Source: an uncultured archaeon
Lineage (GTDB): Archaea; Asgardarchaeota; Thorarchaeia; Thorarchaeales; CAZPUN01
Assembly: GCA_964589775.1 (NCBI GenBank)
Contig: CAZPUN010000048.1
Coordinates: 14,383-46,382 of the forward strand
Length of the DNA: 32,000 bases
Reading direction: 5' to 3'
In this document: one piece after another, positions 30,452 to 32,000 of the stretch
How the letters are laid out: each line of letters opens with the position of its first letter
Numbering within the stretch: the first letter of the stretch is position 1
Translations under genes and position numbers: made by a program
The notes under the pieces: generated by a model
The model's input: only the letters and a program-made list of their open reading frames with translations
Database searches by the model: none
Told to the model about the DNA's origin: nothing

Positions 30452-31033
30452 ATGAAGGAAGTAATGGTTCTAAAAGATCCAAAAGTAATCAAATTAGTTT
30501 TAAATGAAACACGCGCTCAAATTTTATTCCAGTTCCTTACAAAAAGAGCAATGACAGTAAAACAACTATCTGAAGCACTAGATAAAAATCCTGGAAGTAT
30601 ATTGCATCACATTAACAAATTAAAAGAAGCCGGACTAGTCGAACTTGTAAAATCAAGGGTTGCCCCAACAGGTATCGTAGAAAAATATTATCGCGCAGTT
30701 GCAAGACGCTTCACATACCAACTAGGTGTTATGTTTAAAGGCCCTAAAAGCATTGCAGATTTTGCAACAAAACACATAACAGCAATTGTTAATGCATTAG
30801 AGATCTTTGGAATAAAAATAAAAGAAAATTATAAACAAGAATTTATTGAAGATTTGATCCGTGTTCGGGATTATGAAATAAGCATAGCAGAGAAAATTGA
30901 TATAAATGATAATGTAAATGTTCCAGATAATATCAGAGCAGATGCCTTCGAACTCGCATATAACTTGATTCTCTTCCAAGATGAAAAATACCTCAAATTA
31001 AAAAGAAAACTATTAGATTACGTTGTGTTTTAG
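30452..31033 (+). CDS. ArsR-like winged-helix transcriptional regulator
   Basis: TRAQIL, MTVKQLSEAL, HHINKLKEAGLVELV and EKYYRAVA. RBS GGGGGGA lies inside the upstream gene. Confidence 0.9.
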   Translation: MKEVMVLKDPKVIKLVLNETRAQILFQFLTKRAMTVKQLSEALDKNPGSILHHINKLKEAGLVELVKSRVAPTGIVEKYYRAVARRFTYQLGVMFKGPKSIADFATKHITAIVNALEIFGIKIKENYKQEFIEDLIRVRDYEISIAEKIDINDNVNVPDNIRADAFELAYNLILFQDEKYLKLKRKLLDYVVF

Positions 31034-31155
31034 TACTTGTATCATTTAGAAAATATCTCGAACATATTCTGATATTTCTCATTTAATACATACGTTTAAT
31101 AGAAGAAATGTTCCAATAGAAATTGAGGTTAATTAATTAAGTGAGGAATTAAAGT

Positions 31156-31308
31156 ATGGATGCCCACAAGACAAATGAAATGGACAAGATTTCGACGTCC
31201 TTGAAAACCGCAGGAATTTTTCACACGCTATATGGCTTAATTGAGCAAGATATAGAGCCAACAGATGATGATGCAGAACGCCTTCGAGCACTATACGCGG
31301 GTTCATAG
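31156..31308 (+). CDS. 50-aa small protein of unknown function
   Basis: Not in the track. GTGAGGA RBS (31141-31147), then ATG: MDAHKTNEMDKISTSLKTAGIFHTLYGLIEQDIEPTDDDAERLRALYAGS*. Confidence 0.55.
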   Translation: MDAHKTNEMDKISTSLKTAGIFHTLYGLIEQDIEPTDDDAERLRALYAGS

Positions 31309-31346
31309 AATTTGTGGGCATTATGCTCCTCACAAACTATGAGCCT
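31299..31346 (+). other. Long RNA stem-loop overlapping the small-ORF stop codon
   Basis: GGGTTCATAG/CTATGAGCCT, TTTGTG/CACAAA and GGCA/TGCT pairings. Confidence 0.65.
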
Positions 31347-31356
31347 CCCGGCATGA

Positions 31357-31405
31357 TCTCGGAGAGAATACGCCCCCAACACCATCCTCTCCGAGACCTC
31401 TTTTT
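31357..31405 (+). terminator. GC-rich hairpin followed by a T-run (terminator-like)
   Basis: Perfect 10-bp stem TCTCGGAGAG (31357-31366)/CTCTCCGAGA (31387-31396), then CCTCTTTTT. Confidence 0.65.
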
Positions 31406-31449
31406 AAAATTTATATGAATTTACGGAATATACATTTGGGAATAATAAA

Positions 31450-31641
31450 TTGATCTTGCATGTATTTATTATTGATCAAAGTGGCTTACCTGCTTATTCA
31501 AAATATAATGCTTATATTTCTGCGCTTCAAAAATTCGGTACGTTATCAGTTAGACATCATGCCACTTCGATTATTAGATTCATTTTTTACATTTTCTTAA
31601 AATTCATCCCTTTATTAGCAATATTCTCGTATTTCATGTAA
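31450..31641 (+). pseudogene. Probable decayed longin-domain gene fragment
   Basis: MILHVFIIDQSGLPAYSKY...AYISALQKFG aligns with MIYGIWIIDMGGNCLFYKD...SFFSAIYNFG of 18244-19560, with an internal deletion. The rest is non-homologous. Confidence 0.45.
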
Positions 31642-31789
31642 AATAAACCAATTTTTTACACTATTTGCTCCTCTACGTGCCGCGCACACTTTTTTAAATA
31701 TCTCGCATTTTTTATCTCGTCGCCGGATACCTCCTAAAATCTCCTTTCATAACCCTTATATTTTTATATTTAGACTGTATACATATACT
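31642..31789 (+). promoter_or_regulatory. Putative CRISPR leader
   Basis: AT-rich non-coding stretch with TATA-like tracts directly 5' of the first repeat. Confidence 0.6.
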
Positions 31790-32000
31790 GTTGAAAAGTA
31801 GCCCGCAAGAATCGCGGATTGAAAGTTTGCATATGATCCTTGTTTCAAAAACGAGGTTGAATTAGTTGAAAAGTAGCCCGCAAGAATCGCGGATTGAAAG
31901 AAATAAAAATTAAAAAAAAGAGGAAGAAAAATTAAAGTTGTTGAAAAGTAGCCCGCAAGAATCGCGGATTGAAAGTGGAAATCCGCAGCTAGATTACAAA
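31790..32000 (+). CRISPR. CRISPR array (start; continues past window): 36-bp repeat GTTGAAAAGTAGCCCGCAAGAATCGCGGATTGAAAG
   Basis: Three identical repeats at 31790-31825, 31865-31900 and 31940-31975, two 39-nt spacers and one partial spacer. Repeats have the 3' ATTGAAAG handle and an internal CCGC/GCGG stem. Confidence 0.96.

Follow-up and report, generated by a model that had tools for sequence, protein, structure and literature searches.

The window analysed here, a 32,000-nt stretch of one contig from the genome of an uncultured archaeon of the order Thorarchaeales, carries towards its right-hand end a short transcription unit (31095–31405, + strand) that is best explained as a single gene standing by itself, which encodes an acidic, helical protein of 50 residues. 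The unit forms an island of 40–52% G+C against a background of about 28% and comprises a predicted promoter, a leader with a Shine–Dalgarno (SD) region, a small open reading frame (ORF) and a 3′ untranslated region (UTR) that ends in a G+C-rich hairpin and a run of T residues. The mRNA of this gene is probably self-silencing, since its conserved 3′ UTR pairs with its own ribosome-binding site and start codon. The evidence leans modestly towards the account as a whole, in which a small-protein gene specific to Thorarchaeota would carry a 3′ UTR that folds back onto the SD and start region and blocks translation.

The closest homologues of the protein, P0001 (locus L010) and P0002 (locus L011), are 94% and 78% identical to it, respectively. 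The ORF differs from that of L010 by 20 synonymous and 3 non-synonymous codon changes and from that of L011 by 16 and 11, most of them at third positions, and since synonymous changes outnumber non-synonymous ones, the ORF is, by its substitution pattern, a true protein-coding gene. A wider family of 46–51 residues was reached via weak DNA matches in two relatives, and shares the core STLQKNAEVLH-x-LYGLLDSDREPTD-x-DA-x-SLR-x-LYASS. Profile searches found the gene in 66 of 87 Thorarchaeales genomes (23 of the 24 of high quality) and in all 17 genera, almost always as one copy, and in none of 313 genomes from other families of the Asgard phylum. Only about 10 family clusters occur among 1.84 billion representative proteins, and the 58 named genome records with the family are all Candidatus Thorarchaeota metagenome-assembled genomes (or carry Promethearchaeota as the phylum label). 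Judged by this distribution, the protein family is specific to Thorarchaeota and near-universal there. Neither a protein-pattern scan nor a 16-mer scan of metagenome contigs gave more members of the window genome's lineage, the 120 16-mer matches in metagenome contigs being due to chance and lacking an ORF. The protein had no significant match in Pfam, NCBIfam or PDB; the best Foldseek hit in PDB had E = 3, the top rows being generic three-helix matches that are not evidence, and a search of the ESM Atlas returned nothing. An AlphaFold model computed with the family alignment (mean predicted local distance difference test score, pLDDT, of 81) places helices at residues 6–10, 14–31 and 37–48, which would form an amphipathic helical hairpin. 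The window genome also holds a second, divergent copy of 46 residues (G000:C56:11339–11476; L069, 1195–1335), which matches the profile with E = 1e-19 and is 33% identical; it lies in AT-rich flanks without the conserved leader or 3′ UTR, and a paralogue of this kind was seen in none of the order's other genomes.

In the window mRNA, GTGAGGA of the SD region is the exact complement of TCCTCAC in the 3′ UTR, ATGCCCACAA at the beginning of the coding sequence (CDS) is the exact complement of TTGTGGGCAT (a pair listed as inverted repeat I13), and GTATG, which includes the start codon, finds its pairing partner in TATGC (coordinates in Table 1). The two exact complementarities, of 7 and 10 bp, lie precisely where a preliminary description of this DNA had placed them, and together with the 5-bp start-codon pairing they form one nested long-range helix, present in both the minimum free energy (MFE) and the centroid structures of 31120–31410. 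The same description had proposed a comparison with shuffled controls, and the fold energy of this segment, −78.3 kcal/mol, stands against −60.95 ± 4.87 kcal/mol for 200 dinucleotide shuffles (z = −3.56), none of which was as good. Pair probabilities and constrained folds were computed on the predicted transcript 31118–31402. The 7-bp and 10-bp helices reach pair probabilities of 0.83–1.0, six pairs of the SD helix standing at 0.99–1.0, and the 5-bp start-codon helix reaches 0.53–1.0. Given its presence in the MFE and centroid structures, the z-score and the high pair probabilities, the helix is real and well beyond chance.

The open form of the same RNA is much less stable. Forcing 31138–31172 to be single-stranded carries a penalty of about 15.5 kcal/mol (closed −77.6 versus open −62.1 kcal/mol), and limiting the 3′ arm to downstream pairing gives −62.0 kcal/mol versus the closed −77.6, these being energies computed without cellular factors. 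A local hairpin made of two stems (31300–31308 with 31337–31345 and 31311–31316 with 31331–31336) was seen only in folds in which long-range pairing was forbidden; its outer stem does not vary among the three relatives and so gives no information, and its inner stem is weakened in L011. The preliminary description had pictured two mutually exclusive states, and while the local hairpin exists, it is the closed state that dominates: at equilibrium the window RNA is a lock and not a balance between two states. The 10-bp terminator hairpin that had been noticed earlier is present (stem 31357–31366 with 31387–31396) and is followed by five T residues. Nine pairs of this stem are invariant and one is compensatory (U31357:A31396 to A:U in L011), and the length of its loop varies.

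Table 1. Features of the small-protein gene and its mRNA in the window.
Feature	Position	Strand	Basis or remarks
Predicted archaeal TATA box TTTAATAG	31095–31102	+	Invariant in three close relatives
Promoter-proximal/leader block GTTCCAATAGAAATTGAGGT	31110–31129	+	Near-invariant in close relatives; homologous to main-family TCCAGTGGAAGTAGAGGTG
SD region GUGAGGA, 5′ arm of long-range helix 1	31141–31147	+	Exact complement of 31327–31333
GUAUG with start codon, 5′ arm of middle 5-bp helix	31154–31158	+	Pairs with 31322–31326
CDS, 50-residue acidic protein	31156–31308	+	Codon-substitution pattern and order-wide distribution
Codons 2–5 AUGCCCACAA, 5′ arm of 10-bp helix	31160–31169	+	Exact complement of 31312–31321
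Alternative local hairpin, outer stem including stop codon	31300–31345	+	Forms only if long-range pairing is forbidden
3′ UTR fold-back segment, 3′ arms of the three nested helices, with anti-SD UCCUCAC (31327–31333)	31312–31333	+	Complementarity and folds
Motif CCUCCCGGCA, common to all relatives	31344–31353	+	In all three close relatives; aligned by model R1 to the P2 loop
Terminal hairpin, 10-bp G+C-rich stem and 20-nt loop with GCCCCCAACACCA (31372–31384)	31357–31396	+	Equated by model R1 with P3
T5 run, likely archaeal termination signal (predicted 3′ end)	31401–31405	+	Kept in three close relatives

Among the three close relatives, synonymous sites of the ORF have changed more than either the promoter and leader (31060–31155) or the 3′ UTR. 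The distance from the TATA box to the leader block is the same in the window and in the main family, where the element is AT-rich and TATA-like, and from the usual archaeal TATA spacing transcription is predicted to start at about 31122–31128, upstream of the SD. A longer ORF, or a leader peptide, running through the leader block was considered and rejected: relatives do not keep a common reading frame from the block to the AUG, for which reason the block is taken to be non-coding.

Alignments A3 and A5 of the 58 main-family sequences show strong conservation of the 3′ UTR, which contains three hairpins, P1 to P3. P1 pairs CCUCAU with AUGAGG; P2 pairs GUCUC with GAGAC around the loop CGUGCACCUCCCGGCAUCA, of which the motif GCACCUCCCGGCA is invariant; and P3 pairs GUGGGGGC with GCCCCCAC and is followed by ACACC. 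CUCCCGG is invariant in 58/58 sequences. Taken jointly, the three hairpins have 92% of cells paired, all covariation measures but one exceed all 500 shuffles and all exceed slid registers; pairs in which both partners have changed number five in P3 and two in P2. RNAalifold on the full alignment gave only fragments because the alignment is gappy. A covariance model of the main-family 3′ UTR built in this analysis, R1, finds about one strong match per genome in 64 of 86 main-family genomes, directly after the ORF in the loci compared, and since this is so the element is, on comparative grounds, a gene-specific UTR and not a dispersed RNA. The window itself matches R1 at 12.6 bits (E = 0.05, 31313–31398), with GCUCCUCA, CCUCCCGGCA and the terminal hairpin recognisable and P1 and P2 absent, so that by this alignment its UTR is a divergent relative, not a full member, of the R1 element. 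GCUCCUCA (31325–31332) also recurs in all of the main family as the 5′ arm of P1, and the main-family counterpart of CCUCCCGGCA, CACCUCC, resembles the 3′ end of 16S rRNA. Rfam gave no match in the window at E ≤ 1 and none at the gathering score in six main-family loci.

Several individual features of the element were also observed. In most genomes P3 consists of 7–8 G:C pairs followed by ACACC(A), for example in L024 (1391–1500, − strand), and in sequence this looks like a tRNA acceptor stem with its discriminator and CCA; in the window, GCCCCCAACACCA lies within the loop of the terminal hairpin. One genome carries a second strong copy of the element (85.9 bits, G063:C105:12247–12365), the only ORF found there being on another contig, which may be a contig-edge or strain-mixture effect, given a contamination of 7%. 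In one genus (L067, G007:C12:14529–14678) the ORF is present but no conserved 3′ UTR is recognisable, the R1 match being weak and on the other strand.

An invariant loop in such an element raises the possibility that the 3′ UTR is, or yields, a separate small RNA whose C-rich loop GCACCUCCCGGCA acts in trans on other SDs, pairing with its own mRNA being secondary. The loop motif is invariant in 58/58 sequences and is common to the window genome, P2 and P3 are supported by covariation, and the UTR is more conserved than synonymous sites, all of which this proposal would explain. The element is, however, always attached to the ORF at about one per genome, no separate promoter was identified, and the co-evolution signal is with the gene's own start region, which makes the proposal improbable.

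That signal was obtained from the pairing of the start region with the 3′ UTR across the order. In the main family, the start region ACGGAGAC-(GAA)-AGCGA-UGACC is complementary to GGUCA-(AU)-UCGCU-GUCUCCGU, a 3′ partner that takes in the end of P1 and continues into the 5′ arm of P2. Genus-level variants keep the complementarity with different spacing, as in GCGAAUGA-U-GACC with GGUC-U-UCAUUCGC, and further ones pair AAUGACCUCA with UGAGGUCAUU or GACCUCC with GGAGGUC; a compensatory variant changes AUGACC:GGUC to AUGGCC:GGCC. Pairing was scored between the opening 75 nt of the 3′ UTR and 25-nt windows moved along the leader and CDS; in both families, and in 58 of 61 loci overall, the top-scoring window had its start 19 to 7 nt before the AUG. 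A swap test on 28 dereplicated main-family sequences gave −28.0 kcal/mol for cognate and −24.2 kcal/mol for non-cognate partners (0/3000 permutations), with a cognate difference of about 0 for five controls, one in the leader (−50 to −21) and four in the CDS, and the addition of the window lineage gave −27.45 versus −22.91 kcal/mol (0/5000). The long-range pairs of the main family are 85.9% paired versus 42–56% in slid registers, and in full-length ensemble folds the mean P of pairing between positions −14 to +6 and the 3′ UTR is 0.59–0.85 in 10 of 16 representatives and about 0.3 in two more. None of the six SD pairs varies among the three close relatives of the window lineage, and the 10-bp helix keeps eight pairs there and shows one compensatory change (U31161:A31320 to A:U in L011). 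Together, these comparisons indicate that a start region paired to the 3′ UTR is an architecture that is conserved and co-evolving across the order, despite different sequences and UTR positions in the two families. The search for homologues with compensatory changes that the preliminary description had called for has thus been made, and both the cognate advantage and the A:U replacement came out of it.

Other observations weigh against this interpretation. In 4 of the 16 representatives start–UTR pairing is about 0, its place being taken by P1 and P2. The energies in the swap test are those of duplexes formed between related sequences, and folds within each molecule that would compete with them are left out of account. 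When main-family long-range pairs are examined column by column, their covariation does not rise above shuffles, 95 of 500 of which reach the score, since there is hardly any variation on either side and what changes there are consist mainly of shifts of the indel type. The window lineage consists of three sequences only, with one compensatory pair in the long-range helix, and the 5-bp start-codon helix is not kept in L010 or L011, so that the start-codon pairing of the preliminary description is present in the window genome but not in its two close relatives. Each side might be kept for a reason unrelated to the pairing: the ribosome in the case of the SD, hairpin P2 in that of the 3′ segment. 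Covariation, the lack of which had been named at the outset as a reason to abandon the switch, therefore gives a mixed answer: column by column the long-range pairs do not exceed shuffles, whereas the swap test and the compensatory changes speak for them.

The same facts are the basis for a reading of the complementarity as a by-product, in which a purine-rich SD happens to match C/U-rich UTR stems that are kept for stability, termination or protein binding, the two ends of the mRNA being unpaired in the cell. The absence of long-range column-wise covariation above shuffles, the clear covariation of the local hairpins and the representatives that fold into local hairpins only would all be expected if this were so. 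It would not account for a complementarity that extends past the SD to the AUG, codon 2 and the spacer, for a cognate advantage that is found only for the start-region window, or for two families that arrive at the same architecture via different sequences and UTR positions, and it is considered unlikely. Two further structures were examined and rejected. Pairing of leader GAGGUG with CACCUC of the P2 loop is 86% paired, but it shows no covariation and there is no cognate advantage for −50 to −21; the leader GAGGUG may lie at or before the start site. A bulge–helix–bulge splicing motif that would circularise the ORF was discarded as the bulge sizes and positions differ between genera (by eye).

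If fold-back of the 3′ UTR onto the start site takes place as predicted, then once the 3′ UTR has been transcribed its anti-SD-bearing segment would pair with the SD, the start codon and the first codons, and the closed helix would be expected to block ribosome binding, leaving the finished transcript translationally silent. Translation would then take place only during transcription, before the 3′ segment is made, or where that segment is opened or removed; the lock might be opened by a factor that recognises the invariant loop of P2, by a helicase or by 3′ trimming. In the main family, the SD-pairing segment GUCUCCGU doubles as the 5′ arm of P2, and helix H_AUG takes the last two bases of P1, so that the closed helix and P2 are mutually exclusive, and the 3′ arm of P2 (GAGAC...) imitates the SD region. 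This would constitute an SD/anti-SD/anti-anti-SD arrangement, in which stabilisation of P2 would free the start site. In the window lineage, P1 and P2 are lost and the fold-back partner starts 4 nt after the stop codon, which would represent the same principle with a different sequence. Pairing in the cell and translational repression are what we infer from these sequences and folds.

The arrangement resembles the SD/anti-SD/anti-anti-SD switches of riboswitches, RNA thermometers and attenuators in that the anti-SD pairs either with the SD or with a competing partner, here the 3′ arm of P2, to give exclusive ON and OFF folds. Unlike in leader switches, the sequestering element lies in the 3′ UTR, about 170–250 nt from the SD, and the closed state, favoured by about 15 kcal/mol in the window RNA, is too stable for a simple RNA thermometer.

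The position of the fold-back partner in the window genome has also been considered in terms of a closed mRNA loop, in which 5′–3′ pairing would serve exonuclease protection or re-initiation and output would be raised, not lowered. With its first base 4 nt past the stop codon in the window genome, the 3′ arm would be melted by a terminating ribosome, 31312–31321 lying within the footprint of a ribosome at the stop codon 31306–31308 (footprint size inferred). Haloarchaeal translational control requires both UTRs, which must interact functionally (PMC2636863). In the main family, however, the pairing segment is 35–60 nt past the stop, behind P1, so that the stop-adjacent geometry is not conserved, and the SD and AUG are buried, which inhibits initiation in the systems studied; a loop that raises output is thus regarded as distinctly unlikely. 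The closed-loop and small-RNA proposals are both compatible with a self-silencing mRNA and could coexist with it. With the haloarchaeal system (Brenneis and Soppa 2009) the mRNA described here shares an archaeal origin and an interplay of 5′ and 3′ UTRs, the evidence in the present case being comparative and computational, and it differs from that system in the genes and the lineage concerned.

Parallels are also found in bacteria. Fold-back of the 3′ end that sequesters the SD is the hallmark of the hok and aapA1 mRNAs (PMC5416894, PMC6733600, PMC9841398). As in hok/Sok of plasmid R1 and aapA1/IsoA1 of Helicobacter pylori, a small-ORF mRNA is involved in which the 3′ end pairs over a long distance with the SD and start region (here as computed), the closed form is far more stable than the open one, and local hairpins compete with it. 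In the haloarchaeal case, Brenneis and Soppa reportedly showed a genetic requirement but gave no base-pairing model that is conserved. In folds of the window RNA in which the 3′ arm is unavailable, the SD region GUGAGGAAUU (31141–31150) pairs with AAUUUUUCAC (31214–31224) inside the ORF (10 bp, two G:U), a pairing that by eye is partially retained in L010 and L011 and that could, by analogy with hok and aapA1, be a transient co-transcriptional trap.

The analogy suggested in the preliminary description that the gene might encode a toxin, and a type I toxin–antitoxin system would consist of a toxic-peptide mRNA silenced by fold-back as in hok/aapA1, together with an unseen antisense RNA. The SD-sequestering 3′-end fold-back predicted for the window RNA is the feature that such a system would share. 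The product, however, has a grand average of hydropathy (GRAVY) of −0.56, a net charge of −5 and a top 19-residue Kyte–Doolittle window of 0.69, and on these values it has no membrane helix; the preliminary description had itself remarked that the peptide is unlike the hydrophobic type I toxins, and the GRAVY value and charge bear this out. In contrast to the hydrophobic membrane peptides of hok and aapA1, the protein is predicted to be acidic, soluble and helical; its host is an Asgard archaeon and not a bacterium; its gene is single-copy, near-universal in one order and vertically conserved amid unconserved neighbours, where the toxin genes are patchy or mobile; and its 3′ UTR carries conserved hairpins and an invariant loop. 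No AT-rich promoter-like stretch was seen (by eye) opposite the G+C-rich conserved block. An acidic, hydrophilic product of a single-copy, near-universal gene does not sustain the toxin idea, and a type I module is judged very improbable.

The surroundings of the gene suggested a further reading. An array of clustered regularly interspaced short palindromic repeats (CRISPR) occupies 31790–32000, with three identical 36-nt repeats at 31790, 31865 and 31940 (spacing 75), and runs into the end of the contig, C48. The gene lies about 385 nt upstream of the first repeat and could on that account be a CRISPR-associated regulator, or part of an RNA toxin–antitoxin module guarding the adjacent array as does CreTA, the CRISPR-regulated system of haloarchaea. 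The likeness to CreTA consists of this CRISPR-adjacent position, in one genome. Among the flanks of 68 family loci, a CRISPR-like array was found at one, that of the window itself, and the 94%-identical L010 has the ordinary metabolic genes PRTase and PNP downstream. The best repeat match in 30900–31785 is 19/36, which is at chance level (shuffles mean 18.2, maximum 22), so that the psi-repeat of CreTA is missing. Two more differences from CreTA are the lack of conserved linkage and a gene that codes for a protein under purifying selection. The connection with CRISPR that had been proposed in the preliminary description, when followed into relatives, thus dissolves (one locus in 68, none at L010, no degenerate repeat), and this reading can be given hardly any weight. 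What endures of the gated mRNA described there is a coding gene with a ribosome-binding site complementary to its own 3′ UTR, co-evolving across the order, with a competing P2 supported by covariation; the roles of its product as toxin or CRISPR regulator do not. A miniature inverted-repeat transposable element (MITE) or other repeat, the remaining alternative that had been raised, was also rejected because the 321-nt unit occurs once in the 2.16-Mb assembly (97% complete, in which repeats could be under-assembled).

The gene neighbourhood is not conserved in the main family. An ArsR/HTH_5-type regulator of 193 residues (window 30452–31033) lies directly upstream of the small gene in all three close relatives, the window genome has a second ArsR-type copy on contig C50, and ArsR homologues in the main family are far from the small gene (e.g. 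250 kb in G009), only the three closest relatives being syntenic. Between the small gene and the CRISPR leader lies a 63-residue ORF (31450–31641) without a Pfam match; its first 15 or so codons (HVFIIDQSGLPAYS) and some DNA beyond match L010 at about 1040–1200, after which the frames diverge. In sequence it resembles what is left of a decayed gene, cut short at the point where the CRISPR leader starts.

Beyond self-silencing, the family may be viewed as an undescribed archaeal 3′-UTR riboregulator. In this tentative extension, which is possible but more probably wrong than right, a three-part SD switch would be controlled through the loop GCACCUCCCGGCA, a mimic of the 3′ end of 16S rRNA, which would be read by a trans factor (protein, ribosomal component or RNA) that opens the closed-loop mRNA and thereby controls a lineage-marking small protein.

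Asgard archaea are the closest prokaryotic relatives of eukaryotes, and to our knowledge almost nothing is known of their post-transcriptional control. The locus described here offers a compact, sequence-defined system of about 285 nt with 60 natural variants and clear mutational predictions, and a tempting but wrong CRISPR or toxin annotation has been removed from it. It attaches a known regulatory principle to a new, lineage-specific family of Asgard small proteins, both the protein and the RNA element being absent from the curated libraries searched. If the fold-back represses translation, 5′–3′ mRNA closure would extend from bacterial toxin mRNAs to a non-toxic archaeal core gene, and a trans-read switch, if real, would make this the first cis-regulatory RNA of Asgard archaea to have comparative support.

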